Shown piece by piece: positions 3,140 through 54,159 of a stretch of 64,000 bases of DNA. This stretch comes from Psammoneis japonica. Its lineage: Eukaryota. The stretch covers positions 497,998 to 561,997 of the forward strand of contig QPGO01000015.1 in assembly GCA_008632985.1 (NCBI GenBank), written 5' to 3'. The notes under the pieces were generated by a model. The model was not told the DNA's origin. It worked only from the letters and a program-made list of their open reading frames with translations, and searched no databases. The translations under genes and the position numbers were made by a program. Positions within the stretch are counted from its first letter, which is position 1. Each line of letters begins with the position of its first letter.

Positions 3140-5970
3140 TGACCAGCTTGGTCAGCAACCATGGACAGCTCATTTGAGCCATGCCATGTTGACTCCAGGA
3201 GACGGTGCATCCTCATGGTGGCTTGTTCAACAACACACATGTGTCGGGTGTGGCGAAGAGGGCAGGCACAAATGCCAGCCACACAAGAAACAACTGTGTC
3301 GGGCCAGGCACAGAGGGGGCAGTTGTGACAGCTGTTTGGTCAGGCATGTTGTTCATCAGGACACGTGACGGAGGCAGCTGTGGCAGCAAACTGTGCTGTG
3401 CATGGTCTTGTGAGTGTTGTCAGAGGAACCAAAAAAACTTGGGAGAGATGAAGGTGGCAGTCATGTGGCATTTGTTGATCACAACCCAACATGGCTGACT
3501 TCTGGTGCTGAGCTTCTGGATCCAAACCACTTTCAGAGCTGCTGCACAACTTAACCCCACCCTTCAGCTGGCCTTGGTGCGACTTCTCTCAATCAGAAAC
3601 AGCTTGCAATGGGGCAAAGAGCAGCCAACCACATCCAATGAAAGTTGAAAACAAAAGTTGCAGTTGTGGAACATCTCCAAGTGTCACAACTGTGAACCCA
3701 AACAACAGTCAGCGGATGTGGCCTGGCAGATGCTCACACTGTTTCCAGAATTTGCTTGCACATCCATGCAGCCACATGTGCGCACAGCTTCACCACTGTT
3801 TTTATCTTTCCTGCCACTTGGCATGGGCATGTTCAATCAGCGCCCAATGGAGTGGCAGCATCTCAGGAGTGGGAGCTCAAAGAGTGTGTCATAAAATGTG
3901 CATTGATGTGCCAAAGTGCCCCCAATTCTGCACAAGAGCAAAACTTGTCTTGCTTTGGTGCTGTGGGTGGAATGATCTGCTTTCATTGCTGAAGCAATGC
4001 TTTGCTGACATGCTTGTGACATCCCTTTCCACCTGTGCAGATGAAGCTCTCTGGGGAGTGGCATTTTGTGGTTTACTTGCACCTCACCTGTGTGTGTTTG
4101 CTCCCATTTTCTTGCTCTGCATTTCAACAGTCTCCACTTGACAAGATTTCTCCAGAGCTCTTGTGTGCTCCCATCAATGGCAACAAAGTGGGCTTGAACA
4201 CACAAGAGAAACAATCACTTGTCTGCAACTCAACGAACTTTCTCCAAACACATCACCAAGCCGGTCATTGCTTCCATTGATTTTTCCCATGATTCAAAGG
4301 CATCAGACTTGGGTTCCATGCTGTTGGATGCATTGCAGTCAATGCAAGTGACAAACAAACACTTCCCTCTCAGCATTTTTGTGTGTCCTTCAGATGATGC
4401 ATGGGTGCAACGTGCTTTGGCTTTGCCCTCACCCATGGAAAAAAGTGCTGTGATTGTGCCCCCTGAAACAATGCTGGGTCAAATCATGCATGACATCCTT
4501 GACAAGCACTCTGATCTGCCAAGGTTGGGCAATCAACCACCATGATGCAAGTCCTTTGCAAGGACATGGCAAGAGGCAGGCAGCCAACAATGCATTGTTG
4601 CACACCCTCGCAGCAGTTGCACATTGTCTCAAGAGACATTCTCTGGAGCAAAGAGCCATCTTGATGTGGTGACACCACCTGCAAAATGATGCTGGTGCAA
4701 GGCTTGAAGATTGCACAAGAAAATTCACAAATTGACCCAAAGATGCAGAGATTTGCTTTTTGCCAACAAAGGCACAGAGTGTGGCACAACAAACCAATTG
4801 TGTTTGGTTGGCTCACATCTGATTTTCAACTCTGTCTTGTTGGGCCAGGAGCTGCCTTGAAAAGCTGCTCTTGGCAGCTTTGAGTGCCCCATGAGATCCC
4901 CACATTGGCTTGCATCACTTGTGTGCATCTCCTGTCCCCTGCATTGTCTCTGTCAATGGCAGTCTGCAAACTTGGGCTGCTTTTCTCTCTGATCAAATAA
5001 TCTTTCAACAACAAAACCACCCCACTTGCACAGTGCTCATCTGGCAACAATGAACAGCAGAAGCTGAGTCCAGCAAATGACTTCTTTTCCCATTTCAACC
5101 CATGTTTTGGCATGCATTTTGCTGAGCTCCCAAAATTGTGCACCTGGTCTGCAACAAGCACTGGGCCATGTGACAAAATGTTGTCTTGGGTGTTGATGAA
5201 AAGGATTGCATGAGAAGTTTGGTTTGTCAAAGCCAGTGGTGTGCCAACCTTGTGCAGAAAAGCTTTTGTGAACACTTTGGGAAGCTGAGCTTGTCAAGAA
5301 CTCCTGCCTTTTCAAAGCAAACACCATGCAAAAGTTGCCATTGGGGAGAAGAAGAGAGAGAGAGATGTGGCACAAGCACAACTTGAAGCTGCTCCATGGG
5401 GCCTTGCCAATGCTGTGTTTGAAATTGTGGGTGGGGTGGGGGGGCACCTCATCTGCTGGGGGTGAAATTCACAACAAAAATGTCCACGTTAACACTTTGT
5501 CTCCAGTGCACAGAAACTTTGACTTGCAAGGACAGAAAGACCAAAAAAAGCTGCAAGCAGGTGTCATCTTTGGCAAAACAGCATCATGATTGCATGGATG
5601 TTGCACCACACTGCTTTCCAAACAGTGCAGTTTCTGACTCTTTTCTTCAGTGTGCTTTTGGAGCTTCTCTGCTTTCTTCTCTTTCAGCACTTCACATCAT
5701 TGTTCTTGAAGCCACTCTCAAGTCAGCTGACCTTCATTTTTTCATGATTTTTGCTTTGTGCTTGAGAACTTTGTTGGCACATTTCTCATCATTGACTTGT
5801 TCTTCTGTGGCACAATGAATGAGCCTCCTCTTTTGCATTGCCCAACATCTGAACACTGGCCCCATTTCCATCTGCTTGATGCTGCACATGCACTGCACTT
5901 GTTCAAAGGCTGATTTGGTCTTGAGAACAGAGTGGATCACTGGCACCAAAGGAACAGCAATTGCCAAATG
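3140..5970. mobile_element. Heavily decayed repeat/transposon remnant(s), family not assignable
   Basis: Near-complete loss of CpG and TpA, Cys/His-rich spurious ORFs, no recognisable domain. Confidence 0.5.
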
Positions 5971-6315
5971 TGTTGGAGCATCTAGATTGCAGCAATGCAG
6001 AGAACCGGATGTGTTAAAGAGAAGATGTTGAAGATCTGACATGGTGGATTTGGCGACTCTTTACATTCAGATTACATTGTCACCAATCTCACTCACCTTC
6101 CAGTTTGTCTCGCTCTTAAGAGTGAATCATCTGGGTTGCAAGAATTGCATTTTGGCATTGTCAAGTGCCTGTCATGTGGTGAGTTTGAAGTTTGCATGAA
6201 TTGACAACTTTCTTTGGGCAAGCCACAGCCACCAAAGCAGCCAGGGCACAAGTGTGATGAGTGGCACAGGAAGCTTTGCAGAGGGCTCCCTTTTGGTGAC
6301 ATTGACTTGCTGGTT
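5971..6315 (+). repeat. Putative 5' LTR of the copia (copy 1 of 3)
   Basis: About 350-bp module beginning TGTTGGAGCATC, homologous to 16035-16387 and 18411-~18700. It lies directly upstream of the gag remnant. The 3' end is approximate. Confidence 0.65.
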
Positions 6316-8384
6316 TGCAAAGAGTCACAAGCACTTTGTTCAGTGCTTGTCACAACTGACCTTCACGCAGTCATCTGACATTGAATCCCTGCACAACATG
6401 AGTGGCAGAGGATGAGAAAGCAGAGCAAGTGGTGGAGGCCAACAACACAACTGAGGCAGAGGTGACAGAGGTCACAAGTCTTCCAACAACAACAACAAGA
6501 CCAAACCAAAGAAAAGCTTTTGACCCGAGATGAAGTTTCATCCTTTGTCACTGAACAGCAATGCTTGCAATGCAACACATAAAGACATCAAATCAAAGGT
6601 CATCAGTTGCATTCAGAAAGAATGCAAACAAGGCACACATCCAGTGAGATCCTCGGAAGACATGAAGCACAAAGATTTCATTGCCAAGAAACCTGAATTG
6701 GGTGCACCCAAGTCAGAACTGCCAAAGACAGACTGCCACACTGAGATGGAAGCAAGACATCAAGACAAAAAAGAACTGGAACACAAGTGCAAGGCTGAGA
6801 TCCATGACTGCAAAAAAAAAAAGCTTGAAGAGAACAAGACCACTGCATGTGCTAAGATCCCAGATGACCACTGCACCAAGTCAATGAAGCAGAGAGTGCA
6901 GGGCAATCCCAGTTGCTCAAGTGCCAGAGATGATTGGACAGAGCTGCTCAAGCTGATGCAGTCCCTTGTGCTTGACTCAATGAGAGGTTGACACCCATTC
7001 CATGCACTTGCCAAGTCTTTGAAGCACATGTTGGAAGTGTGAAGCAACAAGAGAACAAATTGCTGAATGATTGCCTGTCAAGATTCAAGAATCAGCAAGA
7101 TGCTGCAAGCAACAGTTTGAGAAGAAAGATGCCAGCTGGGTTCATTGAGAACACCAAGGAGTGCAAAGATGGCAACTCAACAGCCCAGTCTGACCCAAAG
7201 GCAGCAGCACATGAGACATGGGCAACACATCTGTTCACAGAGAACAGCGACAATTGCTTCTGCCAGAGTTTGAAGAAGAGCTTCATGAGAGATTGCAGTC
7301 TGGGGAAGGACATGCACCCAAAGACCCTGGACAAGGCAATCAATGCACTGCCAAATCATCCAAATGACAACAATCCCAGCTGGAGACCAGTGCATGGCAT
7401 GCATCTGGCAAAGGTCAAGGTTGACCTGTCCCCCAATGCAGGAGTGGACACCTTGGACAAGCACCATGCCTGGATGGGGTGACATGAAGCTTGGATTGCA
7501 GAATGTGATCGTGAACATCCTGAGTCCGAAAGATGTGAAAGACCCAAATGAGTGCTGCATTGCTTGCAATGACCAAGTGGTGGACAAATTCTGGCTGCTG
7601 GATGAGAGGACTGGCAAGCAAGTCATGCGGTGTTCAAAGCAAATGACATTGGACTGCACACCTCTGCACTGAGCCAGTGGTTTTTTGACTGCATGAAAGA
7701 TCTCTAAGAAAGTGAGATGCATGTGTGCATGCTGTCAAAGAAGAAGACAAAGAAACAGACCAACAAGAAGCACAGGAGTGCATCTAGAATCACAGCTCCA
7801 ACAGCAGAACAGAACAACACAGGCTGCACCAAGAGAGAGGTGGCAAGTGCTGACTGGGCACTCAGACTGTGTCATGAGCCTGGAGCACCCAATGTGGCTG
7901 AGGGATTTCAAGCTGTTTTGTGATCCAACCAGGCGAAGAACTTGTCCATCACACCTGAAGATGTGAGCAGGATGGTGGCCATCTGGGGTCTGCCAACAGA
8001 TGCAATGAAAGGCAAGGCCAAGCATGCACGTCATTCCCATGAACAAAGTTGTGACATTGCAGCCATGCCACCTGAGATGTGTGTGATGCAGACAGAAGGT
8101 GCGATGCTCTTCATTGATGCCATGGAAGTGTGTGGTGTCAAGCTGCTGTGTGCAATGGACAAGACAATCAAGTGCCAATTGAGTGTGAGACTGAGGTCCA
8201 AGAAGAAACATGACAGTGTGTTTGAAGCACTGGACATGATCCTCTGACAGTGCAACATGGCCCTGATTGAGATTGACTTTGTTGAGTGTGATCCTGAGTT
8301 CAAGGAAATGCTGCTGGCAAAAGTTGCTGCTGGCATGAATCTGGAGCTGATTTCTATGAACACAAAAGACCATGTGCCCGAAGT

Positions 8385-9600
8385 TGAGCGGAGCATGCAG
8401 ACCATCAAAGAGCAAATGCAGGCCACTCCTGTGCACCATGTGCCACACAAGATGACAACCAAGTTGATGTGTGAGCATGCCATGATCAAGAGTGCTGCAT
8501 TTCAAACAAGTGCCCAGAAAAGCAAGGGATTTCTGACATTCACAGTCCGTGCACTGTTGTGCAATGAAGGAACCTCAAACACTTCCAGCTCAGGTTCAGG
8601 GAATTTGTTGTTTCTGACCCAACAAACACCATGGATGCACGTGGTGTTGACAGCATCATGTGCCTGTGACCGCATTTTGATCTGCCCAAGGTTGGACACT
8701 GCACAACGAAGCTGCACATGGGGAAGCTGTTGAACCCCTGCAAGTGTGCCTCCACACCCCTGACTGACATGCACACACAGGCAGTTTGAGAAGATTGCTG
8801 TCAAACAAGGCATCAAGGAATTTAAATTCATGGGTGAATGCAAAAAAATGATCTGCATGACACTGATTGGACTGCAGCAGTGGACAACAACAAAAGTGGC
8901 AAAAGCAATGGCAGGAAGGATGAATGCAAAGACAATCACAATGATGTCAACTGCATGACCAAGTCCAACAATGAAGACCATGTGCCAAAAGTTGAGTGGA
9001 GCATGCAGACCATCAAGGAGTGAACTCAAGCCACCACATGCCATGTGCCACACAAGTCAACACCCAAGTTGATGTGCAAGCAAGCCACAATCAACAACGC
9101 TGTCAGGTCAAATGTGCACCCACCAAAGGAAGGGATCTCCAACACTTGCAGTTCACACACTCTCATGCAATGAAGGAACATTAACTGTGACAAACACTGC
9201 TGGTTCTGGTTTGGGGAATTTGTGATTTCTCATGTTGAGAATGACCCAACAAATGCCATGGATGCACACGGCATTGACAGCATGCACCTGCAACCATGTT
9301 TTGACCTGCCCAAGGGTGGACACTGCACCATGAACCCACACACAGAGAAGCCATGAACTCCCACAAGTGCACCTTCAAACCCCTGACCAAAATGTTCATG
9401 CAGGCAGTCAAGAAGATGGCCATTGCACAAGGCAACAAGGAGTTCAAATTTGCAAGTGAACACAGAGATGATCTGCACCATGCTGATTGGACTGCAGAAG
9501 TGGACAACAACAAAAGCAACAGCAATGAAAGCAACAGTGAGGACAATTGCAAAAACAACCACAATGATGTTGACCACATGACCAAGTCTGACGATGAAGG
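8385..9600 (+). repeat. ~600-bp internal tandem duplication of the integrase C-terminal region
   Basis: aagaccatgtgcc..gttgag.ggagcatgcagaccatcaa occurs at 8386 and 8974. gattggactgcag.agtggacaacaacaaaag occurs at 8866 and 9485. Confidence 0.85.
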
Positions 9601-10404
9601 TTGCAAAGAAGATGAAGCAAACTCAGATGAGGAACACAAAGAAGCAAATGAGATTCCACACAATGGAAGATGATCCAGCCCTGATCAAAACAGCATGACA
9701 TCCAAGAAACAGAAGATGAAGACTGTGGAAGTGAAGAAAACAAAGATCATGAAGATCACAAGGAACACAATGAAGCCACAGAATCACAAGATGCTGACCA
9801 ACCCCAACAAAGACAACAGATGGGAAGAAGAAAGATTGGTGGAAGTGGCAAGTGGCATGCCTGGCAGAGCAATCAGGAGTGGTGCCAACTGTTCTGCATT
9901 CTTCAACATGAAATCAAGCAAACACATGGATGAGAAAGTTTGATTTGCAGAAGTGGCAGACACTGACAAAGTGAAACAAGAGCACAACACTCTTGAGCAC
10001 TGCCATCATTTAAGAACAAATGTGAGCCCCAATGCAGAGGATGACACAATGTGAAATGGAGACAGCAACAGTGCTTGCACACTTCATGTGTGAGATTGAT
10101 GACCAAATCTGAAGAGGAAAGGGTGTGTCTTTTGCCCAGCAATGTTTGTTGCACAAAGGCGCCTCAAAACATTTGGCCAGAGAGGACATGATGCATCAGA
10201 GAAAGAAATGAAACAACTGCATGATTGAGTGTGCTTTGCACCAGCATCAGTCAAGGATGCAACTCCAACTGAAAAAACCAATGCATCAACAGCAGCCTTG
10301 ACATTCCCAGCCAAGAAACATGATGGTCACATTAAAAGGTGAGTGATTTGCAGTGGGAAACCAACCTGAGAATGGCCAGACAAAGATGAGCCAGCCAGCC
10401 CAAC

Positions 10405-10680
10405 TGACAGAAATTGAAGGCAAATGGCAAGAATTCAAACAACAACTCCTCACTGCTGTCTAAATGGCAGATGAGTCTCTGCTCAGAGACCGTTGCAGGA
10501 GCCGAAAGACGTGCAAGTTGGTACAATCGGGCTACTGTTGTTGTTCTTGTGAGCCTTGTGGCTCGAAAGCAAACTACATTGTGCGCGAACGCGCGGAACT
10601 AAAGCACACAAAACTGTGCGCGGCAAACTAAACAGCGCGCAATGTTTCGCGCGCACCCAAATCCTGTTCAAATCCTGTCA
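10405..10680 (-). repeat. 3' LTR of the nested element
   Basis: 276 bp, 14 substitutions versus 13721-13996, no indels. Confidence 0.95.
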
Positions 10681-10746
10681 CTCCCCAGTTTGCTTGAGGA
10701 GTCACAGAAACAGATTCGACTTCGGATTGACCAAAGAACTTTGGAG

Positions 10747-12768
10747 TCAAAGCACCAAAACATGAGGAGACAAGAAAGGATCAAGATCCGAGAGCAACGT
10801 TGCATTCTCCAAGTGGGTCATCTTGAGATGAGCTGCATCTCCCCAATTGCAGATGCCGTTGTGCTTTTCAAAGCTCAAGGCACACTTGGGATCTTGTGGG
10901 ATTCCACATCCGCACTTGCAATGGAAGGAGCAAAGCTTGGTCTGGTTGACAATGTTGAACGGCGGGGCAACATTGCAGGCGGCATGGCGTTTGCATGACT
11001 CGGGGAACAGAGCAAGCATCAGTTCAAAGGCACAAGTGGTGGTCTTGTGTTCCACCAATCCGACTGCATCTCCTGAGAGACTGATCCAATTGGAGAAACG
11101 AGTCTCAAGGTGCAAGCCTTCGGGGATCGGATTGGAGCAAGACATCTTGTGGTGCAAGGCTGCAGATGTCTGATTGGGGCAACCAGTCCCGTGCTGCAAG
11201 ACTTCTGGGATCCAAAAGGACTTGCCAGTCTTGTGACACGAGTCTTCGGGGATCCAATCAGGAGGCCAAGTCTTGAGGTGCGAGACTTGGGGGATCCAAT
11301 CAGGAGGCCGAGTCTCGTGGTGCAAGACTTGAGGGATCCAATCCGGAGGCCGAGTCTTGAGGCATGAGACGTGGAGGATCCAATTGGGAGGCCCGGTCTC
11401 GAGGCACGAGACGTTTAGAGTCCAGTTGGGAGGCCTGGTCTCAAGGCACGAGACTTGGGGCCTGGTCTCGAGGTACGAGACTTGGAGCATCCAGTCAGGA
11501 GGCCTGGTCTCAAGGCATGAGACTTGAGGCATCCAATCAGGAGGCCTGGTCTCGAGGTACGAGACTTGGGGGATCCAACCAGGAGACCTGGTCTCGAGGT
11601 ACGACACTTGGGGCATCCAATCAGGAGGCCCAGTCTCGAGGTGCGAGACTTGAGGCATCCAATCAGGAGGCCTGGTCTCGAGGTACGAGACTTGAGGCAT
11701 CTAATCAGGAGGCCCAGTCTTGAGGTGCGAGACTTGAGGCATCCAATCAGGAGGCCTGGTCTCGAGGTGCGAGACTTGAGGCATCCAATCAGGAGGCCTG
11801 GTCTCGAGGTGCGAGACTTGAAGCATCCAATCAGGAGGCCTGGTCTCGAGGTGCGAGACTTGGAGCATCCAGTCAGGAGGCCTGGTCTCAAGACACGAGA
11901 CTTGAGGCATCCAATCAGGAGGCCCAGTCTCAAGGTGCGAGACTTGAGGCATCCAAAGACAACGAAGCTGCTTGGATGTCCTGAACTCCCCATCTGATGA
12001 ACCGGTTGAACTGTTGTGAACAGATTCAATGATGGGAAAAGGAGGCTCCCCATCAGGAGATGCGAGAAGCAAGTTGTCATCTCCATCACTTCCCAAACGA
12101 AGACTGTGAAGGGTGACAGCGGTCGACACATGGAGGTTGGCAGCACGTGGTTTGCGGGGTGCAAAGACTGCAGCTTTGGAAGCCATGGGTGGAGTGTCCC
12201 AACTGGTCTCGAAGTGCGGGCCTGTGCAAGGGCTGCAATCCTGCACTGGGCCGAGGTTGCTTGCAGGCGGGTTGGTCAAGACATGCGGGGCGCGACTGAC
12301 ACCACTTCTGGGGGACACCTGAGTGGTGGCACAGTGCAAGGCTGGTGTCAAAATGGCACTGGGTTCACCTGGTTTGGATGGCAAGGGACTCGGCACAGGT
12401 GCGGAGGGTGCTGCGCCAGTGGCTAGAGAGGTCAAGTAGTCCGGACCAAGGCGGCAGTTGCGAAATTCCTCGGGTGTGAGCAACCGGGGTTCATTGGTCA
12501 CATCATCACCGTTGCAAACTTTGACAAAGTAGAAGCTGATCAAAGCTGCTGGGAGGTTTCTGTGGGTCCGTGGCAAAGGCACTACATTGGCGCCGTCTCT
12601 GTAAGTGAGGGCGTCAATTTGGGTGGGTAAGAACATGAACAATTCCTCACACGATTCAATCCCGTTGATGGACAGGGCAGAACGAAGAGGGCTGTCATCT
12701 TCTTGATTGAGCACAGTGCCTAGAATGCATTTGAAGCTTTCGGTTTGTTGCTGTCGCGTGAGAACCAT
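10747..12768 (-). pseudogene. Copia gag-like ORF with a 14-aa tandem-repeat C-terminal region; one in-frame TAG at 11701-11703
   Basis: MVLTRQQQ...ILGTVLNQEDDSPLRSALSINGI...IDALTY...LTPEEFRN resembles diatom copia gag N-termini. ORFs 11701-12768 and 10747-11700 are in the same frame, split by TGG->TAG in one repeat unit. Confidence 0.7.
11090..11955 (-). repeat. 42-bp tandem array (PPDWMPQVS[Y/H/C]LETR), about 20 units, degenerating toward lower coordinates
   Basis: Plus-strand unit gagacttgaggcatccaatcaggaggcctggtctcgaggt(a/g)c. Confidence 0.95.
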
Positions 12769-13720
12769 GACGGAGGACGGTGCAGTAGAAACAAAAGACA
12801 GGAACCAATCTAGAGCGTGATCTTGACTCGGAGTTTTGACTTGGAACTTGGCTTGAAAAAGACTTGACTTGAGCTAGACTTGACTTGAAATCTTGGACTG
12901 TCTTAAAATCAGAAGTCGCCGGGCTGCACTATCCCGTTGGTTGTCAAGTGCTAAACTTCCTGTCCGGTCCGTAGAGTTGTGCCAGCACGTCCGAACCCGC
13001 AGCCAGCGGCACTTTGGGTTGCTTGCGAGCGGAGCAGCGGGTTGCAAACCCCTGCAGGCAAGCTGACCAGAGGTGGACAAGACCCCCGAACCGTTCTTGT
13101 TTTGTGTCGGTTGGATTTCCCGATTGGGCTGGCCAGTTGACGTAGGCGCCAGGCGCTGTGGACGAACGAACAAACGCGGGAAAACACCCTCGCCCCAACG
13201 TGGGCTGCAATCATGGCTGCTTGCTCTCACAGTCATCCTCGTGGACCTGGCAGAACTGCAGAGCACCAGCAGTCCGGGGTAGATCAGGTACAATGGACTC
13301 GGTGTGCTTGTAGAGTGGCAGCAAAACCGCGGTCCGAAGAGTGGGCACAAGTTCTTGGCCGTGAAGACATGTGTGTGCACATGTCTTCAGCGACGAAGAT
13401 CCTTGAACATGCAGGGTTCTTGACCGTTAACCGATGAATGGGTGCATCAAGGGATGAGGATCAAGGACAGACTTGGACATGACCGTTGATGCATGTCTTC
13501 AGCGATCCAAGGCAGCATGATCAATCCAGATGTCCAGCGGCAAGGAGACTTGACGGTGACGTTAAATTCCTGCCGATGCCTGGCATTGAACGCGCGCAGA
13601 CTTGCCGATGTATGTAGAACACACACGGAGGTCCACGCAGAATTGAAGCAGCGTCGTCGGTAAATCAACGACGACGATGGCGGTTGCTCAATGGGTTGAC
13701 AATGAGCAAGACTGTCAATC

Positions 13721-13996
13721 TGACAGAAACTGAAGGCAAATGGCAAGAATTCAAACAATGGCTCCTCACTGCTGTCTAAATGGCAGATGAGTCTCCGCTC
13801 AGAGACCGTTGCAGGAGCCGAAAGACGTGTAAGTCGGTATAATCGGGCTACTGTTATTATTCTTGTGAGCCTTGTGGCTCGAAAGCAAACTACATCGCGC
13901 GCGAACGCGCGGAACTAAAGCACACAAAACTGTGCGCGGTAAACTAAACAGCGCGCGATGTTTCGCGCGCACCCAAATCCTGTTCAAATCCTGTCA
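13721..13996 (-). repeat. 5' LTR of the nested element
   Basis: Direct repeat of 10405-10680, upstream of the gag-like ORF on the minus strand. Confidence 0.95.
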
Positions 13997-16034
13997 CCAA
14001 CAGCATCCTCAGAAGGAACATTTGTGATGGTGATTGCAGATGCTGCTGAAGAGCATGATGTCATGAGCACTGATGCACACCAAACACATTTGTGCAAACA
14101 ATGACACCAGAGCCTGACAAAGGCAAAGACCAAATTGTGATGAAAGTTGCAGGAGTGTTGGTTGACATGCTTGCGAGCATTGACCCCAACCCATGTGGAC
14201 CACATGTGGTCCTGGAAAAAGGCAAGAGAGTCCTTTCCATCCAAGTCATTGGAGCCACAATTGCAAAGACTTGGAGAAGACAAGGTTTGAGCTCAACCCA
14301 TGTGATCCATGCATTGCCAATCAAACAGTTGGTGGCAAGCAGCGCGCCATCCAACTCCATGTGGATGACCTCATGGCAAGCCTCAAGAGCCCAAAAGCAA
14401 ATGACAAGTTTTAAGCTGGTTGAACAAGGTGCATGGAAGCCATGGCAAAGTCATCTCTGTGCAAGAGAAGAGATGTGACTGTCACAGCATGACCCTGGAC
14501 TTCAGCCACAAGGGCAAGGGGGGGAGGCCAACATGACCAAAACTGTGCTGGCAAGATGATCCGTCAGTTTCCAGAAAAGATTGAGAATGCAGATGCTGCC
14601 ATGATGATGCCAGCAGGTGAGAATCCATTTGACGCCAGTGGTGCAAGCAGAGAAAGCACAGATGTTCCACACACAGGTGGCCAAGGGACTGTTTGCACCC
14701 AAGAGAGGTCATGTGGATGTGCACCCCCCGCTGTTGTGGCGCTGTGCACATGAGAGTCAGAGAACCTGTGAATGAAGATTGGGAAAAGTCAGTCCATTGT
14801 CTCAAGAGCATGAACCGGGCAAGAAACCAGCCACAATCTGCTGTGGCTGCAAATGAATGTTGACCATGTGCAGCAATGACTCGTGTGAGCTGTGCACATG
14901 TTGCAACATGATGACAAAGGCATGGCCACCAAACTGCTGGCTGGATTGCCAAGAGAGACTTGCAGGTCTAAGCAACACAAGAATGCAAGAGATGATGGGT
15001 GCAGATTGCATCAGAGCATTGGGAGAGTGCAAGAGGTGGGTTGAGAGCAACTGGAAGATGCTGGCTTTTGATCTGCACCTGCAACAAGACACTCTGGATT
15101 TGCGGGAGGTGTTGTTCACCACAAAAAAAAACAAAGACAGAAGACCCAGATCTTACACTGCCTTCCTGTTGGGGGAAGCCAGAGTTGTTGGGCCTGTGGC
15201 AGGGCCGGTGGCAGGGCCTGTGGCTGGGCAGATGCAAGTTGATGATGCAAGTGCATGAAGAAATGGTGGCACAATGGAGTTTTGAGACAGTGGAGCACAT
15301 GTCTGCTGCTGCACCTGTGTTCTCCATCTGTTGTGATTGAAGAATGACAAATGAGGAAATCAAGAGACAAGCCAATGAAGCTCCCCAGACCAAAGAATGT
15401 TGGTGGATTGTTGGAAGCTGAGCCTCAAGGCAAGGCAAAATGTGCTGCAATCAGCAGCAACCTGGCAATGAACAGTGCCTCAAGGACAGGTGCATCACCA
15501 GATCATTGAGCAATGAACTGCAATTGGCCATGAGCGTGAGCAACATTCAAGACCCAAGTGGAAAGTCAAATGTTTGCCTGCCCACATGTGGCATGGACAG
15601 GAATGGGGCACGCGGCACCCTCATGAAGTTCATCAAGTGCCCCAATCCTGATGTTGTCATGACTCATTGTGAGCTCATGAGGGACAACGATGGCATCATT
15701 TGTGATGTGAGAAAGTTGGCATCATTCTTCCACTGTGATTTTTGCAAGTGGTGCTGCAGAGAGATGGAGTTCTTTGACTTGACTCCCCCCAAAGCAACCA
15801 GCAACTGGGAAATGGAGGATCTGGCCAAGGAGTGGGACAGTGAATTTGAGAAAGAGAAACTCTGACATGGTCATGTGGAACATTTTGTGAAGCATGTTCA
15901 TGACATGACACACTCATTTGATGATGTGACCAGATGTTCTGACAATGGGCGGTGCGCCAGCTTTTGTGTTGCCCATTTGAGGGACAATTGTCAAGAGGTG
16001 GATCAGAAGAACATTGTTGAGAGCAGCAGGAGTG

Positions 16035-16387
16035 TGTTGAAGCATCTGGATCATGGGAACACAGGGAACACAGAGAACCCAGACATGTTAAAGAGAAGAT
16101 GTTGAAGATCCTGACATGGTGGATTTGACGAATCTTGCATTCGGAATGCATTGTCACCAATCTCACTCATTTTTCAGCTTGTCTTGCTCTTTGGAGTGAA
16201 TCGTCTGGTTTGCACAAATTACATTGTGGTGTCAGAAGGTGCCCATTTTGTGTTGCAAGTTTGAATTTCATCAAGAACTTCCAAGCAAACCACTGCTGCC
16301 AAAGCAGCCAGGGCAAGTGCAACAAGTGGCACAGGAAAGCCTTGCAGGATTCCCTTTTGGCAACATTGACTTGCTGCTGGTTCAACA
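16035..16387 (+). repeat. Copia LTR (copy 2), TGTTG...CAACA
   Basis: Preceded by AGCAGGAGTG (PPT-like 'RSVL' junction). Homologous to the 5971 and 18411 modules. The exact 3' end is uncertain. Confidence 0.7.
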
Positions 16388-18700
16388 TCAAGTGGATGGC
16401 ATGTGGGCATGCCAGAAGCTTGGCATCCAAAGCAGCACAGAAGCTGAACTTGTTGGAGTCAATGATGCCATGACTGTGATGCTGTGGACAAAGTTGTTCA
16501 TGGAGCACCAAGGGCATCCAGTTGACAAGAATGTCCCTGTGTCAGGACAAAAAGAGTGCCGTGCTGCCTGAAGCCAATGGGTGTAAGAGTGCCGGCAAGT
16601 GGTGGTCCAGAGCACTCAACATTTCAGCTTTTCTTTGTCACCAATCAGATCAAGAAGGGCAATCCAAGAGCCCAGTGCTGCACAGCTGTTGACATTCTTG
16701 GAGACTTCATGATGAAGCCTTTGCAGGGCAAGATTTTTGAAAGCTCAAACGAGCCATTGTGGGCTGTTAACTTCAAGCACAAGTGTTTCCTGTTCTTTGT
16801 GACATTGGACAAGAGTTCTGACGCATGTGGGTGAAAGATCCCTGCAACCCAGTGAGGGCACTGAACCAAGAAGTGGTTCAACCAGCCACAATCTGTGGCT
16901 GCACCAAATGAACATCAACCATGTGTGGTGACAACTCATGCGAACTCTGCATGCATTGTGACATGATGACAAAGGTGTGGCCAACAAGCTGTTGGCTGGA
17001 TTGTCAAGAGAGACTTGTGGGTCTGAGCAACCCAAAAACACAAGAGATGATGGATGAAGATCACAGCACAGAGCAATGGAAGTGTCGAAGAGGTGGAATG
17101 AGAGTGACCAGAAGAAGACACCAACTCTCAATCCACACCTCTCCACCACCACACCCTCTTTGCACCCAAGTTCAGATGGAGACAACCTGCCATCAGCATG
17201 GCCACCAACAAACATGGCCACTTCTGGATTTGATCCACCTGGAGGAGGGCACCTCTGAGCCAAGATGACCTGTTTTGGGCTTTTTCACTGTGACCAGTTT
17301 TTTTCACTTTCTCACTTTTTCTGGCTTTGTTGGAACAGGAACATTGATTGCTGTGACTGGACCACAGCCACTCCAGCTTGGGAAAGGCTTTGTTGGAAGT
17401 GGCGGCTTGCGAAGTGTGTGCTCGAATCCTTGATGTGCACCAGGTGCTGGACTTTGTTGAGAAAATGAAAACAGAAGATCCAAATGTGGTCACACCTTTC
17501 CATTGGGGGGAGCCTCAGTCATTGAGCCTGTGACATGGTCTGTGGCTGGGCAGATGCAAGTCATTGATGCAAGTGCATGAAGAAATGGCACAGCGGAGTT
17601 TTGAGAAGGTGGAGAGCACATGTCCACTGCTGCACCAATGTTCTCCATCCACAATGACTGGAGAAGTGCATGTGAAATTAAGAGACAAGCCAGCGAAGCC
17701 CCCAAAACCAAAGAACATTGGTGAATTGTTGGAAGCCAAGCCTCAAGGCAAGGCACAGTGTGCTGTCCTCTGCAGCAACCTGCTGGCAATGGAGAGCTCC
17801 TCAAGGACAGGTGCATTGCCTGTTGCAGCTGGCCCTGAGCAACAAGAGTGACATTCAAGACACACATGGAAAGTTGGGTGTTTGCCTGCCTGCACATGGC
17901 ATGGACAAGAAAGGTTCATGTGGTGCCCTCACAAAAAAGCTCATTGAGAGCCCTGATCCTGACATTGTCATCACTCATCATGGGCTCATGAGGGACAAGG
18001 ATGGCATCATTTGTGACACAAAGAAGTTGGCATCATTCTTCTACCATGAATGTTCACCTGCATGGAAATCACGTGAGTGGCACTGCAGAGAAATGGAGTT
18101 CTTTAATTTGACTCCTCTGAAGCAATCAATGGTTGGACAATGGATCTGGTCAAGGATCAGAACAGCGAAAACAAGAAAGAGCAACTCTGTTGTGATTGTG
18201 TGGAGTGTTTTGTAAAAAGTGTGTTTGTGACATGACACACTCATTTGATGACATGACCAGATGCTCTGATGATTGATGGTTCACCAGCTTTTGCATTGCC
18301 AGTTTGAAAGATGATTGTGAGGAGGCAACCAAGGGGATGTGTTGTTCCTCAAGACAGACCAGGAATGATCTTGTTGGAAGAACATGTCATTGTGAGCGGC
18401 AGCAGTGGTGTGTTGGAGCATCCAGATCATGGGAGCACAGAGAGCCCCAGACATGTTAAAGTCAAGATGTTGAAGATCCTGATGTGGCGGATTTGGCAAC
18501 TCTTCACACATTTGGATTTTATCATCGCCAATCTCACTCACCTTTCAGCTTGTCTCACTCTTTTCAGCAAATCATCTGGCTCACAAGAACTGCACTGTGC
18601 TGGTGTCACCAGGCACCTGGCCTGTTGTGACACAACTTTGAAGTTTGCATCAACAACTTCTGGGCAAACCACAGCCACCTGAGTGGCCAGAGCAAGTGTG
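16388..18700 (+). mobile_element. Second, 5'-truncated copy of the same copia: RNase H, 3' extra region and partial LTR (18411-~18700)
   Basis: QKLGIQSSTEAELVGVNDAMTVMLWTKLFMEHQG and DILGDFMMKPLQGKIF are copia RNase H motifs. 16879-18410 is homologous to 14825-16034. Confidence 0.8.
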
Positions 18701-19310
18701 GTGTCATCACCACAGAATGTTCTTGTGCTCCTGTTGTTCTTCTTCCAAAGAGCATGCTGCACTTGTTCTTGGGTTGACATCATTTTGATGAAACAAGCTC
18801 AAAAGTTGTTGTTGTTGTGCAGAATCTGGCACCACAGTGTTGTTTTGTGAGCCAGCATGTGGTGCAATGGCCTCTGGGGCTTGCCTTTCAAGCAGTTGTG
18901 TTTTCTTCTCTCATGAACAAGAAGGAACAAGCAAAAGCTCAAAGCCCATGACGGAATGTGTCGAGCACGTCTCCAACACTAACCCAGAAGTGGGCTGCCA
19001 AATTCATTGGCCTGGGAGTGCTTGACCTGAGTGTAATGTCGAGGGACGCTGCCAAAACAATTTTTTGCGTCGTGTCGTACGTACGGTAATGTCGTACCAT
19101 ACGTACCGGTACGTACGGCGTACGTCTGCCGCAAAACATCGTCTGTCCGACGCAACGGAAAAGATCGACGACCAGCACCGCCCGACCACCCGCCACACCG
19201 ACCACAGAACTGCCGTCGATCGACCACCATTTTCATTTTCCATTTTTGCAGTTCCAGGAAGACTTCGAATTCGTCAAAAGAGCAACAAAAGTACAAGTAA
19301 AAGCATCGCC

Positions 19311-33805: not shown

Positions 33806-34249
33806 CGGTAGTGGTCAGATTTCAAAATCTGAGCAATACAGAAATGTCAATGATGAATAAGGATTTTAGATTGCTTCTGCCGTAAATATCATTACGCCAA
33901 TGCCACTAATGAATACACAAATGAATTTGTATTCCATCCTTTTCCTGAACTTTGATCTATCGGCATTTTCGATACGAGTGCTCGACGCGATGACAATGAG
34001 GCATGCTTGTATGTGTCATGGCCATAAGCTGTGAGGCGTACCGTCACATTTGGATTGAACTCGGGGATCTTGATGTCGAAAGTAGCCATTTGTTTGACAT
34101 TCGTGATTTTTCATCGCCCACAAACTGGGATTTCAACTGAGTCGAGTTGATGTTGGACGTGTTTCAAAGCACTGCGTTTGATGAAACAATTGAGGGCTCT
34201 GGAATTATGGCATTTTATGCCATGGAGACTTAAAACAGCAAATGGGTTG

Positions 34250-36200
34250 ACAATCAAGCAGTGATCGGGTTTGCCAACATTTCCAAAAATGTGACAACAA
34301 AAGTTGCATCACTCAACAACCAACAACATCTCAAGAGATGGAAACAAGAAAAGTGACTCCTCTTTGCACTTGAATTAAAAGAGACAACAATGCACAACAA
34401 ACATTTGAGAAGGACAAGAAGCTCTTGAATGCATGGAACCAGAAGAGAGTCAATGAATCGCTCTTGTTTTGAACCTCTTGACCTGTTCTGTCCATGATGG
34501 TGGTTGGCTGAAAGGTTGGTGGTGGTTTTTTTGTGTGACTTGCAGCTTGAGGCATGTTGATGCATGAACACATGGCCCATGTGTGGTGTCACCTTTGGAA
34601 AGTGCCACTTGTGGAGCTTGGGTGGACAACTCTCTGTGCTCAAGCTTTGTCCGCCAAATGCTCCATCAAAGTCCAGATGCTGCCACATCCCACCCGACCA
34701 TTGACACAAAACAGTTCTTGCAAAATGTTGTTGCCTGTTTCCCTCTTCCTCTGCAGAGCAGCCCTCTTGGTGACAGTGCTGCCCACATGCCAGAATGTGC
34801 TCAAGAATGCTTTCCATTTTGCCAGCAAAGATGCCCAACGCGGGCTGTGTGGGCTCGAATCTCTCTCAAGACAAGCTGACATTTGTGCCTGGCACTGGCA
34901 GCAATGCTCAGCCCTCCTTCCTGTTTGACTTCCCAGGAGTGTGCCCAGATCTCCTGCGTGCTGAGTGGCTCAACCACAAGAGTCGCTGTCTTTGTCAGTT
35001 TTGTCAGCAGGATGTGCCAAGGCTGCTCTGGCCATGTGTGTGCAAGGACAGCTGCGACAGCGCTTTCTGCTGTCAGCAAAGAGTGTGAGCTGGCTGGACT
35101 GCCCAACCCCACACTTCACAGCTCCTTGGCAGTCACTCCAAATCAAGTGCCAACTTGGGGTCAACCGCACCTGGCTGGCTGCAATGCAAAGACAGCTGTG
35201 GCAGCACTTTGTGACAACAAAGAGAGTGCGAGCTGGCTGGGCTCCCAACCCCACACTTCACAGCCCCTCAGCACTGGCTCCCAATCAAATGCCAACTTGG
35301 GGCCAATGGCTGTGAAGCCATCATTGCAAATCCCTGTGCCTGCCCCCTCACACAGCTTTGCACAGGGTCAACATGTGTGGCCTTTGCAAGATGGGCCCTG
35401 GCTGGCTGCTGGCTCTTCAGCCACACGGCTTGCACAACAAGCCACCACAACACAGAGCACTGTGGGGTGAGTGCAGCACAGCCCAAACAAGCACACCATG
35501 CTGAGATCACCCAGAGTTGGCTGCTGTCCTGGGGCTCCATTCAAAGCTGGGCTGGGCTGCTTGGCTCCTTGGTGTGCAGCACATGCTTGGCATCACATTC
35601 TTGTTGCCAAGCAGCCACATGGCATGTGCCCACCATTTGTGCCTGCAACAGCGACCCCAGCCACAAAGAAGCCAACAAAAAGTTGAACCTGGTTTTGTGG
35701 TTGAAGAGTGAAGAAACTGTGAGTGAAGTTTGGTTCAAGATTTGTTGGCAATGCCAAGTGCGCAACCAAAGAGAGGCGCCAAAAATGGCTGTTCTTGCTC
35801 ATTTCTCAAGAGGAGCTTGCGCTCATGATGCAGGGTCTGAAGCAAGCACCAGCCAAGACAACAGTTTTTTCTCTCTGCCCCACTTAAAACACAGCCTTTG
35901 AGTCAATGTGGTGCTCCTTCAACAACTCACGCACACTGGGAAGAGCAGCTGGAGCCAGGGCAGCTGGCCTGGCAGGGCTTGGCTGATGCCCAAGCTGGGC
36001 TGCTCAGCCTGGTGGCACACACTCAGTGCCACATTGTCACCCTCCTGCAACTGCAATGTGCCCCACTCTTTGCACCTGCAGCAACCACCCTGGATCAAAA
36101 GAAGCCAGTGCAACTCTGGCCATGGTTGCATGGTCAATTGTGTGTGTGTGTTCAACGGTTGATTCCCCTCTTTTTTTCTCTTTTCCTTTAACCGGCCACG
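34250..36200. mobile_element. Decayed CpG/TpA-depleted element of unknown family (second copy about 36870-38815)
   Basis: Same dinucleotide signature as the copia island, no recognisable domain. Confidence 0.55.
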
Positions 36201-39200
36201 AACATGAAAAAATTGCCGATTTTGGTAAAGATTTCATGCTCGTGGCTGGTTAACGACAAGCCCATAGCCCAATCTCTTTGTCTGACTTCGAGCCAAAGTA
36301 AGCTAAATGGTTAGTGTAAATCGTTAAGTGTCATTTCCACTTCGACACAAAGAAAGCTAAATGGTTAGTGTAAATCGTTAAGTGTCATTTCCACTTCCAT
36401 ACAAAGACAGCTAAATGCTTAACGGTAGTGGTCAGATTTCAAAATCTGAGCAATACAGAAATGTCAATGATGAATAAGGATTTTAGATTGCTTCTGCCGT
36501 AAATATCATTACGCCAATGCCACTAATGAATACACAAATGAATTTGTATTCCATCCTTTTCCTGAACTTTGATCTATCGGCATTTTCGATACGAGTGCTC
36601 GACGCGATGACAATGAGGCATGCTTGTATGTGTCATGGCCATAAGCTGTGAGGCGTACCGTCACATTTGGATTGAACTCGGGGATCTTGATGTCGAAAGT
36701 AGCCATTTGTTTGACATTCGTGATTTTTCATCGCCCACAAACTGGGATTTCAACTGAGTCGAGTTGATGTTGGACGTGTTTCAAAGCACTGCGTTTGATG
36801 AAACAATTGAGGGCTCTGGAATTATGGCATTTTATGCCATGGAGACTTAAAACAGCAAATGGGTTGACAATCAAGCAGTGATCGGGTTTGCCAACATTTC
36901 CAAAAATGTGACAACAAAAGTTGCATCACTCAACAACCAACAACATCTCAAGAGATGGAAACAAGAAAAGTGACTCCTCTTTGCACTTGAATTAAAAGAG
37001 ACAACAATGCACAACAAACATTTGAGAAGGACAAGAAGCTCTTGAATGCATGGAACCAGAAGAGAGTCAATGAATCGCTCTTGTTTTGAACCTCTTGACC
37101 TGTTCTGTCCATGATGGTGGTTGGCTGAAAGGTTGGTGGTGGTTTTTTTGTGTGACTTGCAGCTTGAGGCATGTTGATGCATGAACACATGGCCCATGTG
37201 TGGTGTCACCTTTGGAAAGTGCCACTTGTGGAGCTTGGGTGGACAACTCTCTGTGCTCAAGCTTTGTCCGCCAAATGCTCCATCAAAGTCCAGATGCTGC
37301 CACATCCCACCCGACCATTGACACAAAACAGTTCTTGCAAAATGTTGTTGCCTGTTTCCCTCTTCCTCTGCAGAGCAGCCCTCTTGGTGACAGTGCTGCC
37401 CACATGCCAGAATGTGCTCAAGAATGCTTTCCATTTTGCCAGCAAAGATGCCCAACGCGGGGCTGTGTGGGCTCGAATCTCTCTCAAGACAAGCTGACAT
37501 TTGTGCCTGGCACTGGCAGCAATGCTCAGCCCTCCTTCCTGTTTGACTTCCCAGGAGTGTGCCCAGATCTCCTGCGTGCTGAGTGGCTCAACCACAAGAG
37601 TCGCTGTCTTTGTCAGTTTTGTCAGCAGGATGTGCCAAGGCTGCTCTGGCCATGTGTGTGCAAGGACAGCTGCGACAGCGCTTTCTGCTGTCAGCAAAGA
37701 GTGTGAGCTGGCTGGACTGCCCAACCCCACACTTCACAGCTCCTTGGCAGTCACTCCAAATCAAGTGCCAACTTGGGGTCAACCGCACCTGGCTGGCTGC
37801 AATGCAAAGACAGCTGTGGCAGCACTTTGTGACAACAAAGAGAGTGCGAGCTGGCTGGGCTCCCAACCCCACACTTCACAGCCCCTCAGCACTGGCTCCC
37901 AATCAAATGCCAACTTGGGGCCAATGGCTGTGAAGCCATCATTGCAAATCCCTGTGCCTGCCCCCTCACACAGCTTTGCACAGGGTCAACATGTGTGGCC
38001 TTTGCAAGATGGGCCCTGGCTGGCTGCTGGCTCTTCAGCCACACGGCTTGCACAACAAGCCACCACAACACAGAGCACTGTGGGGTGAGTGCAGCACAGC
38101 CCAAACAAGCACACCATGCTGAGATCACCCAGAGTTGGCTGCTGTCCTGGGGCTCCATTCAAAGCTGGCTGGGCTGCTTGGCTCCTTGGTGTGCAGCACA
38201 TGCTTGGCATCACATTCTTGTTGCCAAGCAGCCACATGGCATGTGCCCACCATTTGTGCCTGCAACAGCGACCCCAGCCACAAAGAAGCCAACAAAAAGT
38301 TGAACCTGGTTTTGTGGTTGAAGAGTGAAGAAACTGTGAGTGAAGTTTGGTTCAAGATTTGTTGGCAATGCCAAGTGCGCAACCAAAGAGAGGCGCCAAA
38401 AATGGCTGTTCTTGCTCATTTCTCAAGAGGAGCTTGCGCTCATGATGCAGGGTCTGAAGCAAGCACCAGCCAAGACAACAGTTTTTTCTCTCTGCCCCAC
38501 TTAAAACACAGCCTTTGAGTCAATGTGGTGCTCCTTCAACAACTCACGCACACTGGGAAGAGCAGCTGGAGCCAGGGCAGCTGGCCTGGCAGGGCTTGGC
38601 TGATACCCAAGCTGGGCTGCTCAGCCTGGTGGCACACACTCAGTGCCACATTGTCACCCTCCTGCAACTGCAATGTGCCCCACTCTTTGCACCTGCAGCA
38701 ACCACCCTGGATCAAAAGAAGCCAGTGCAACTCTGGCCATGGTTGCATGGTCAATTGTGTGTGTGTGTTCAACGGTTGATTCCCCTCTTTTTTTCTCTTT
38801 TCCTTTAACCGGCCACGAACATGAAAAAATTGCCCAAGATTTGACACCGATGCGTGTCACATCACGCACGCGAAAAATAAAACAACGGCCGGCCATGCAT
38901 CGTGCGTTCCGCTCCGGTACCAAACTGTGTAACTTTCTACATACATAGATGAGTGCGGTGTTGTACACGACACAATTTATAATGTATACGAATATGAATA
39001 AAGTCATTAAAGAATACGATATGACGGCATCCAGCATGTTGATGAAGCTGTTGGTTCTGGGACATGGCAACAACGCAAGTGCAAGAAGCAAGACATCGTG
39101 TGTTGCCTCTATCCAGTAGAAGCTCGTGTGAGAATTGCAACGACACTCTGGAGTGTTATCTTATTCATCCTGAGGGTACTATTGTCTCTCTAGCCGCTGC

Positions 39201-53734: not shown

Positions 53735-54159
53735 GACTTGTACACCAACTAGATAGCCTAGAATGGAAAGCTATAGAAGGCGGAGACCCTTCGGGAATTA
53801 TCGTTTGGTGCTGTTATTTCCTTTTTCGCAGAAATTGCTTCCTTCTGTTTTCAAAGCCCCATTGGTGTGGGGTTTCACTCTAGTAGCTTTTCGAGAAAGA
53901 CTCTACACAGAAACTGGTGCTACTAGCACTGCTGCACATAAACTGATAGACGTTCTGTCAGGCAACTAAATCTTTTCCAACTTGTGGCAATTCCTCACAC
54001 GAGAAGAAGAAGAATAGCTCCGAAACATATCTTTGAGTGTCCATCATTTTGTAGCGTTGCTATTCTTCACCCTCAACCCCACCCGGTAGGGTAAGAGTAA
54101 ATGAAGTACCGAAGGCAGCAACATTTTTCTCTACCTTACCTTGCCTTACCGGCATTTCC

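Follow-up and report, generated by a model that had tools for sequence, protein, structure and literature searches.

We analysed a stretch of 64,000 nucleotides (the window) from contig QPGO01000015.1 of the Psammoneis japonica assembly GCA_008632985.1 (positions 497,998 to 561,997 of the forward strand; positions below count from the first nucleotide of the window). In it, housekeeping genes flank sharply bounded blocks from which the dinucleotides TpA and CpG (TA and CG in counts) have almost disappeared, and the subject of this report is how that erasure came about. The flanking genes encode UTP6-like and SDA1 proteins, two SDRs, an RBR ligase, an acyl-CoA dehydrogenase, a UFD2/U-box protein, an RRM protein, a signal peptidase, TTI1 and a WD40 protein. 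Among named organisms, the SDA1 exon is nearest to raphid pennate diatoms, with Cylindrotheca at 68-71%, Bacillariaceae sp. at 70%, Seminavis and Nitzschia at 67% each and Fistulifera at 65%; among records without an organism name the highest value is 76%. The host is thus a diatom and not Bigelowiella, the alga considered in the comparison below. Screening in 1-kb windows, followed by a 200-bp map of the whole window, delimited depleted blocks at 3151-10500, 13951-19000, 34151-36250, 36751-38850, 54151-54650 and 59901-64000, with the SDA1 gene directly to the right of the main block. These blocks coincide with the islands listed in an initial annotation of the sequence, which had also described the span 3140-18950 as poor in TA and CG. 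That description holds overall but not uniformly, the nested younger element at 10386-13997 being only partly depleted (observed-to-expected ratio, o/e, 0.24 for TA and 0.70 for CG).

Features of the window, with dinucleotide counts and observed-to-expected ratios (o/e); LTR, long terminal repeat; RT, reverse transcriptase
Feature	Position	Strand	Remarks
Old TA/CG-erased block, left part	3151..10385		TA 20 (o/e 0.04), CG 38 (0.10) in 7235 bp; sharp left edge between 3137 and 3203
Old erased block, right part	13998..19000		TA 14 (o/e 0.04), CG 39 (0.14) in 5003 bp; sharp right edge 18980/19034
5' part of dead Ty1/copia-type polyprotein (gag to RT)	6398..10405	+	Profile positions 1-1174; three frames, interrupted by TGA
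3' part of Copia relic	13925-14739, 16413-16744	+	Profile match
Tandem duplication within relic	8366..9599	+	8366-8976 against 8974-9599, 75% identity; 40 adjacent TG<->CA doubles
Diverged LTR-like copies	5969-6312, 16071-16376, 18409-18703		Repeat comparison
Diverged LTR-like internal copies	14825-16319 against 16880-18698		Repeat comparison
Nested younger high-copy element in RT region of relic	10386..13997		Partly eroded; gradient from left to right, TA o/e 0.13 then 0.34, CG 0.57 then 0.82
Left LTR-like repeat	10386..10681	+	296 nt; TG/CA at all 10 TA/CG-type differences
Right LTR-like repeat	13702..13997	+	93.2% identical to left; keeps 5 TA and 5 CG
42-nt tandem array	11096..12040	+	Inside nested element
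Erased block, first tandem copy	34151..36217		TA 6, CG 24 in 2067 bp; sequence unclassified
Erased block, second tandem copy	36768..38834		Duplicate of 34151..36217 block
Small island	54151..54650		TA 2 (o/e 0.07), CG 15 (o/e 0.48)
Erased block reaching window end	59901..64000		TA 8 (o/e 0.03), CG 24 (o/e 0.10) in 4100 bp; sharp left edge near 59901; unclassified

The compositional shift is confined to four dinucleotides. Together, the non-redundant old blocks (18,405 bp) contain 48 TA (o/e 0.04), 125 CG (0.12), 2193 TG (1.97) and 2125 CA (1.81), against o/e values of 0.58, 0.99, 1.12 and 1.13 in the flanking gene-rich background (37,753 bp), while the remaining 12 dinucleotides stay close to their background values; TG and CA are thus as abundant where TA and CG are gone as had been annotated. 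The density of pyrimidine-purine (YpR) steps is nearly the same in blocks and background (0.244 and 0.236 per bp), TA plus CG falling from 0.096 to 0.009 per bp and TG plus CA rising from 0.140 to 0.235. From this mass balance it follows that TA and CG were turned into TG and CA and that nothing else shifted. In the genic background TpA is itself under-represented and CpG is not. A single example gives the scale: the 600 nt at 9361-9960 hold 0 TA, 1 CG, 57 TG and 83 CA, where background densities predict 23 TA and 34.5 CG (P(TA=0) ~9e-11, P(CG<=1) ~4e-14), and the 300 nt of the SDA1 exon at 20401-20700 hold 17 TA and 14 CG; the hand counts made earlier for both segments were exact. A separation index, defined as (TA+CG)/(all YpR) in 300-bp windows, had a median of 0.40 and a minimum of 0.25 in 374 windows outside the blocks, and a median of 0.037 and a maximum of 0.11 in 174 windows inside them, so that the two classes did not overlap and none of the 374 windows outside the blocks was depleted. 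Equal depletion in other DNA, which the initial annotation had named as a refutation of its reading, is therefore not seen in the window. The edges are abrupt, the spacing changing within ~50 bp from one TA or CG per ~8 bp to one per ~50-100 bp; besides the edges given in the table, transitions lie at ~34150, ~36200 and ~38830. TG and CA are balanced between strands in the individual blocks (826/893, 606/554, 242/230 and 519/448).

Pfam detected no family in 15 stop-to-stop open reading frames (ORFs) of the blocks and a 699-aa read-through, the Copia relic included, nor in the three ORFs of the 34-36 kb block, and Rfam gave no match across the whole window. The read-through translation of 7501-8997 had 473 relatives at E<=1e-3, among them one (P0145) that carries a Copia-type RT (RVT_2, PF07727) downstream, and one relative of the Copia clade is named Nitzschia sp. 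P0145 is a 1460-aa Copia-type polyprotein that its source assigns to a metagenome-assembled genome of Pseudomonadota, most likely through misbinning of a eukaryotic contig. A profile built from 45 full-length relatives matched the plus strand colinearly, with its positions 1-1174 at 6398-10405, 1153-1432 at 13925-14739 and 1509-1617 at 16413-16744. Through this profile the relic shows the Ty1/copia order gag-protease-integrase-RT-RNaseH with an RVT_2-type RT, relatives carrying PF07727, and the main block is accordingly a dead Ty1/copia-type LTR retrotransposon. The Copia profile had no match in the blocks at 34-39, 54 and 60-64 kb, which are unlike one another in sequence and stay unclassified. 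The small island at 54 kb has the TTI1-like gene on one side and an SDR gene on the other and may be a short fragment of mobile DNA that is younger or less methylated. The element nested within the relic is a member of a family of very high copy number, as its summed word depth in the public sequencing run X1 reaches 6,000-125,000 against ~63 for genes. No Pfam family was found in its ORFs and no Rfam match in its sequence; its 42-nt array could encode a repeated peptide.

Copies of the same sequence within the window record how the dinucleotides were lost. Five pairs of old paralogous copies (2501 aligned bp, 75-77% identity) contain 125 adjacent double changes of the type TG<->CA (40, 14, 46, 12 and 13 per pair), where every other kind of adjacent double change occurs at most 7 times. 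Their 590 differences comprise 295 YpR-class transitions, 154 other transitions and 141 transversions. If each copy had resolved its ancestral TA and CG sites independently and evenly, half of those sites would be discordant between copies, and this fits the data, since 2x125/2501 gives 0.100 per bp, close to the background TA plus CG density of 0.096. The younger LTR-like pair shows the same process at an earlier stage. Ten of its 20 differences are sites at which one copy has TA or CG and the other TG or CA, and all ten are mutated in the left copy, which has lost 5 of 11 TA and 5 of 22 CG; the others are one TG<->CA double, three other transitions and five transversions crowded into the first 18 nt. 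In the 42-nt array, the single TpA of the unit is lost in 13 of 16 in-register units (8 to TG, 5 to CA, never at both bases); of the two CpGs, one has disappeared from 7 of the 16 units and the other from 3, again with both products. The one-sided loss in the LTR-like pair and the gradient along the nested element are compatible with patchy action, but could also have arisen otherwise, for instance by recombination involving a younger copy. The young copies were not free of TA from the outset, given that the nested element keeps TA at o/e 0.13-0.34 and that its LTR-like repeats differ at 5 TA and 5 CG sites.

The direction of change was read from the proteins, using alignment columns with at least 60% agreement among 45 intact relatives (836 observations). 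The Copia relic has kept none of 50 conserved Tyr residues (15 became Cys, 8 His), 9 of 53 conserved Arg (12 became Gln, 9 His and 6 a stop) and 10 of 52 conserved Ile, while every other residue was kept at 28-64%. Among changes explicable by a single step, A>G or T>C fell at TA>TG in 24 cases (7 further ones ambiguous), at TA>CA in 21 and in all other contexts in 25; C>T or G>A fell at CG>CA in 34, at CG>TG in 10 (8 further ones ambiguous) and in other contexts in 24 (3 further ones ambiguous). The test also contained 134 transversions and 203 multi-step changes, and a smaller earlier test agreed with it. TpA makes up a small share of A and T positions, and the 45 (plus 7 ambiguous) TpA-context changes against 25 elsewhere therefore amount to a large excess per site. 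The polarised and the copy-by-copy evidence together bear out what the initial annotation had postulated, namely a second, TpA-specific A:T->G:C process that acts on both strands and, in the window, in transposon DNA only, beside the decay of CpG. The depletion is mutational, arose after insertion and proceeded independently in each copy.

Two explanations without mutation in place have to be set against these observations. One is an adaptive composition of the elements themselves: active copies would keep UpA and CpG rare in their RNA, as is the case in many RNA viruses and mRNAs. For RNA viruses and cytoplasmic RNAs, joint suppression of CpG and UpA with an excess of TpG and CpA is described (PMC3829696). 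We consider this hardly credible here: the changes are not synonymous, Tyr and Arg being lost, stops gained and frames broken; the copies show independent TG and CA outcomes at a density equal to that of background TA plus CG; a depletion to o/e 0.04 goes far beyond selective suppression; and the young nested family retains both dinucleotides. The other is hyper-editing of retrotransposon RNA or cDNA before integration, by an ADAR-like A->I activity at UA and an APOBEC-like C->U activity. The main relic is indeed a retrotransposon, and ADAR prefers a 5' U, as stated in the main text of bioRxiv 10.64898/2026.01.13.699255. Editing of one strand would yield TG without CA or the reverse, whereas TG nearly equals CA in every block, and this balance rules out single-strand RNA or cDNA editing prior to integration. 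Moreover, LTR-like copies are identical when they integrate, yet here TA or CG in one corresponds to TG or CA in the other and TG<->CA doubles separate them, and the units of one tandem array show TA, TG and CA at the same position. Editing before integration in any form is accordingly very improbable.

The sequencing reads were used to examine whether the erased blocks are real. Run X1, whose library type is unrecorded, contains 84% of the sampled words of the window, and contigs assembled from its k-mers have a word depth of ~63 on single-copy genes. These contigs agree with the blocks without a letter difference or gap over 7083-8187, 14490-15436, 15410-16102 and 17039-17765, and in two further block stretches with no letter difference and one gap. 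Where X1 and the window differ, the differences are mostly transitions (A>G 34, C>T 39, G>A 33, T>C 36; each type of transversion 2-9). Two other runs, X2 and X3, cover small parts of the window, the tiny X3 only the nested element. Of four listed places in this element at which every X1 contig disagrees with the window, three have CG in X1 and TG or CA in the window. An artefact, in which modified bases in repeats (5-methylcytosine or a modified T or A) were miscalled and randomly resolved to TG or CA, would mimic the TG<->CA discordance between copies through random resolution on the two strands, and one X1 contig over 4696-5490 (depth 46.7) does depart from the window at 14 letters and 8 gaps, three TG<->CA doubles included. 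Exact contigs of 31-mers at 30-38x depth, however, cannot arise from noisy, modification-sensitive calls, and they reproduce four block stretches without a difference. The same damage at the protein level occurs in unrelated public records, both in 5 of 150 relatives with at most 0.6% Tyr and in loci from three separate metagenome assemblies, and the 99.9% identical tandem copies of the window lack TG/CA differences. We therefore reject an assembly or base-calling artefact, whose probability we regard as very small, with the reservation that X1 is not independent of the assembled sample. The depth of the exact-match contigs over the erased blocks is about half that of the neighbouring genes (30-38 against 63); taken with the divergent contig, this may mean that the erased blocks are heterozygous, that the haplotypes were mutated independently, or that a paralogue is present.

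The initial annotation had further proposed that the mutation is targeted to repeats, as a kind of reverse counterpart of repeat-induced point mutation (RIP). A tandem duplication of 2617 bp (33601-36217 against 36218-38834, 99.885% identical) bears on this point. It contains ~550 bp of DNA of normal composition in addition to 2.1 kb of erased sequence, and its copies differ at three places, two single-G indels (34841 and 35549) and a TG/TA difference at 35988. The ~550 bp of normal DNA are duplicated and not eroded, and dependence on homology is thus unsupported. The duplication is very young, unless the assembly itself created it, and the uneroded DNA may simply have been duplicated too recently for homology-triggered mutation to act. 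To say that foreign or mobile DNA is targeted is therefore safer than to call the process repeat-induced.

The losses of TpA and of CpG can be told apart. Expressed as a percentage of background density, TA and CG stand at 5-9 and 10-18 in the old blocks, 23 and 58 in the left half of the young element, 59 and 83 in its right half, 11 and 48 in the island at 54 kb, and 7 and 23 at the left edge (3151-3600). TA is more depleted than CG in 8 of 8 sub-regions, and TpA loss thus runs ahead of CpG loss in the window. The CpG layer is nevertheless pronounced in the old blocks (CG o/e 0.10-0.18 against 0.99 in the background), with Arg changed to Gln, His or stop at 27 of 53 conserved positions. In environmental relatives the two layers occur separately. 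Five of 150 representative Copia relatives contain at most 0.6% Tyr and have Cys, His or Trp at the Tyr columns of the family; the DNA of one of these five, present in three metagenome assemblies (L001-L003), has TA o/e 0.0-0.1 and CG 0.7-0.9 in its coding part, and its frame of 535 codons is still open with 0 Tyr, 4 TA and 85 CG. Another metagenome locus (L004) shows the reverse, CG o/e 0.12 and TA 0.75. A codon-by-codon check showed that TA->TG or CA never creates a stop and that CG->TG does so only from CGA, which explains both the open but Tyr-free "ghost" frames and the interruption of the relic by TGA alone. Long Tyr-free ORFs in public protein collections (P0151, P0141, P0202, P0155, P0250 and P0271) are such hypermutated Copia relics. 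No hypermutated copy was found among the full-length Copia relatives, all 120 matches listed having at least 2.9% Tyr; as the ranking favours intact proteins, this value says nothing on how frequent the signature is in named diatoms.

The CpG layer most likely reflects deamination of 5-methylcytosine. Such an origin agrees with the DNMT5a-dependent CG methylation and repression of young transposable elements in Phaeodactylum tricornutum, as described in the searched text of Hoguin 2023 (PMC9998398). A single machine of dual specificity that erases both palindromic YpR steps, for instance a DNA deaminase editing A in TpA and C in CpG, would account for the fact that the two losses share their blocks and the sharp edges of these, and CG loss is nowhere in the window unaccompanied by TA loss. 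The losses are uncoupled elsewhere, TA alone being eroded in L001-L003 and CG alone in L004, and within the window TA loss always leads, for example in the island at 54 kb and the left half of the young element. A requirement for a 3' G at the altered C is expected of 5-methylcytosine decay; deaminases are not known to read it. The main text of bioRxiv 10.64898/2026.01.13.699255 cites a report that amphioxus ADAT2 edits A as well as C in DNA; the same text describes hypermutable regions of Bigelowiella natans in which 230 of 231 mutations were A>G or T>C, with essentially no C>T. On balance we consider one dual-specificity machine quite improbable, and two processes the better reading.

The few TpA sites that survived are not a random sample. 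Relative to background density, survival is 1.1% at VTAB (5 sites), 10.1% at TTAB or VTAA (24 sites) and 67% at TTAA (19 sites), so that ~99% of the TpA with neither a 5' T nor a 3' A are gone. TTAA provides 19 of the 48 survivors against 4% expected from the background (binomial p 1e-14), and the sparing of TTAA is established in this window. In L001, likewise, 5 of 6 surviving TA are flanked by T on the 5' side or by A on the 3' side. The intermediate survival of 10.1% is close to the square root of 1.1% (10.5%), which fits independent hazards on the two strands, with one flank protecting one strand. As to which flank protects which strand, we tentatively favour a 3'-neighbour rule, by which 5'-TAA-3' is protected and 5'-TAB-3' is the target; TTAA would then survive because an A followed by A on the edited strand is spared. 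This rule described the product spectrum with a root-mean-square error (RMSE) of 0.89 and r 0.63, against 1.08 and 0.32 for a context-free model, and was best in three of four blocks. Aligned copies offer 12 informative events, of which 9 obey the rule (TTAB->TTGB 6 against 2, VTAA->VCAA 3 against 1), and so do all 5 of those in the LTR pair. The opposite rule, in which 5'-TTA-3' is protected (position -2), disagrees with the product spectrum (RMSE 1.50, r -0.27) and was discarded.

The comparisons demonstrate the dinucleotide specificity, the polarity, the timing after insertion, the strand symmetry, the confinement to the blocks and the separability of the two layers. We consider it highly likely that the blocks are dead mobile-element DNA of the diatom nuclear genome, rewritten after insertion by two context-specific transition processes, and that the TpA layer is of the same kind as that of B. 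natans. Under this reading, a mobile element would insert and both processes would then convert their targets to TpG and CpA. The TpA layer would consist of TpA-specific A:T->G:C hypermutation, giving TpG on one strand and CpA when read from the other, at about equal frequency on both strands; it would stop within ~50 bp of the edge of the element, act in patches and approach saturation. The CpG layer would be a slower decay of CpG to TpG and CpA by deamination of 5-methylcytosine, given the DNMT5 CG methylation of diatom transposons.

Several points weigh against this reading. Mobile-element identity is shown for the complex at 3.1-19 kb only, the other blocks being unclassified, and we infer the methylated or silent state of the blocks and the 5-methylcytosine origin of the CpG layer. 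The window contains no gene for a deaminase or DNA methyltransferase. Run X1 probably derives from the same sample as the assembly and is not independent of it. In the protein polarity test, some columns were counted two or three times owing to the internal duplication. The calculations of survival and products assume that the elements started with the di- and tetranucleotide make-up of genes, which is unproven. The 3'-neighbour rule was not better than the context-free model in one of the four blocks and has 3 exceptions among the 12 informative events; for Tyr codons after T it predicts Cys only, and such codons gave 2 Cys and 2 His.

With regard to the chemistry of the TpA layer, the leading candidate is a deaminase that would be recruited to foreign or silent DNA and convert adenine there to inosine (A->I), which is read as G; we give this mechanism slightly less than an even chance. 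The initial annotation had listed a DNA adenine deaminase among its candidates, and the B. natans preprint puts forward the same idea. A base modification or repair pathway acting at TpA in heterochromatin, through a mispairing modified A or T or through G:C-biased mismatch or patch repair, appears unlikely but deserves weight, since the sequence does not identify the chemistry of the change, TpA is palindromic like the sites of maintenance-type modification, and the sparing of TTAA could equally reflect the recognition site of a modifying enzyme. One version of it, error-prone repair by a pol-eta-like polymerase with its WA->WG signature, had been put forward in the initial annotation and is unsupported, because AA (o/e 1.15 in blocks, 1.14 in background) and AG (1.06 and 1.02) are unchanged. 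The graded survival of TpA fits hazards acting strand by strand, for which an enzyme reading a single strand is simpler than one reading a duplex site. More broadly, we propose tentatively, and as a less probable extension than adenine deamination itself, that diatoms, like the distantly related chlorarachniophyte, may possess a dedicated DNA-editing defence, in which integrated mobile or viral DNA would be recognised and essentially all accessible TpA edited strand by strand at 5'-TAB-3'. Such a system might be an ancient immunity of the stramenopile, alveolate and rhizarian (SAR) lineages or of a broader group, and the main permanent killer of transposons, acting upstream of CpG decay and faster.

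The findings have several consequences. Dating of transposable elements from LTR divergence would be badly biased, as half of the differences between old copies are YpR-class transitions. Tyr-free open frames in protein databases represent hypermutated relics and not proteins, and gene callers still predict them. Some diatom species are genetically tractable, and the responsible enzyme could therefore be sought by knock-out. The flank effect, with TTAA spared, provides a biochemical handle on the enzyme, and a natural TpA-specific DNA adenine editor, if it exists, would be of interest for base editing. Disabling of invading DNA by TpA hypermutation may be commoner than known: it has so far been reported once, from one rhizarian alga in a 2026 preprint, and the same footprint, saturated in a diatom and present in environmental contigs, would make it a widespread eukaryotic defence.

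Among known systems, ADAR and APOBEC resemble the process described here in producing deaminase-type transitions with a nearest-neighbour preference, in ADAR for a 5' U, and in being aimed at selfish nucleic acids. Their substrates are RNA or cDNA in single-stranded form, prior to integration, and one strand bears the marks, whereas the blocks were altered on both strands equally and after integration. Fungal RIP is likewise a transition-only hypermutation at the DNA level; it inactivates mobile elements for good and can be recognised afterwards from their dinucleotides. RIP converts C to T mostly at CpA, enriches TpA and needs duplicated sequence. The blocks show the opposite direction, as already noted in the initial annotation, TpA being erased (o/e 0.04) and CpA enriched (o/e 1.81). 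Methylation-driven CpG decay shares with the blocks the conversion of CpG to TpG and CpA in transposon DNA only, neighbouring genes keeping a CpG o/e of ~1; it covers one of the layers and cannot remove TpA.

The closest counterpart is the hypermutation of integrated viral DNA in B. natans (Mettrop et al., bioRxiv 10.64898/2026.01.13.699255), and this preprint has overtaken the earlier statement that no such defence was described, since it documents TpA->TpG/CpA changes in integrated foreign DNA. According to its main text, 231 of 302 nuclear point mutations in 15 mutation-accumulation lines fell in two integrated viral regions, at a rate of ~6e-7 per site per generation, and 230 of these 231 were A>G or T>C, all at TpA; only some lines were affected, and the main target was single-copy. 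The same text reports 124 genomic clusters poor in TpA and rich in CpA and TpG, an enrichment of DDE and reverse-transcriptase domains in TpA-depleted coding sequences, and proposes an ADAT2-like DNA adenine deaminase. As far as that text describes them, both cases share the change of TpA to TpG and to CpA on both strands, the restriction to integrated foreign or mobile DNA in an otherwise normal genome, and a long-term footprint poor in TpA and rich in CpA and TpG; the patchy or episodic action seen there may apply here too. They differ in lineage, the host here being a stramenopile (diatom) and there a rhizarian (chlorarachniophyte), and in target, an LTR retrotransposon relic and other repeats here against giant-virus and virophage inserts there. 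Erasure approaches saturation here (TA o/e 0.04), while the main text gives a Rho of 0.45 for the nucleocytoplasmic large DNA virus region. A coincident layer of CpG loss is present in the diatom, whereas B. natans shows almost no C>T and the term "CpG" has no occurrence in the main text; TTAA is spared here, where the main text of the preprint gives no context wider than TpA. The evidence also differs in kind, a de novo rate having been measured there and a footprint read from the sequence here, where the partly eroded young element and the single TG/TA substitution between the 99.9% identical copies are the only hints of a raised rate. For diatoms, no report of TpA hypermutation was found in the literature searched, whose coverage leaves out most subscription journals; in term searches, the text of Maumus 2009 did not mention dinucleotides, hypermutation, RIP or deamination, and that of Hoguin 2023 (PMC9998398) did not mention deamination. 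Compared with this searched literature, the occurrence in a diatom and in contigs of environmental eukaryotes, the near-saturated end state, the coincidence with a separable CpG decay and the sparing of TTAA are new.

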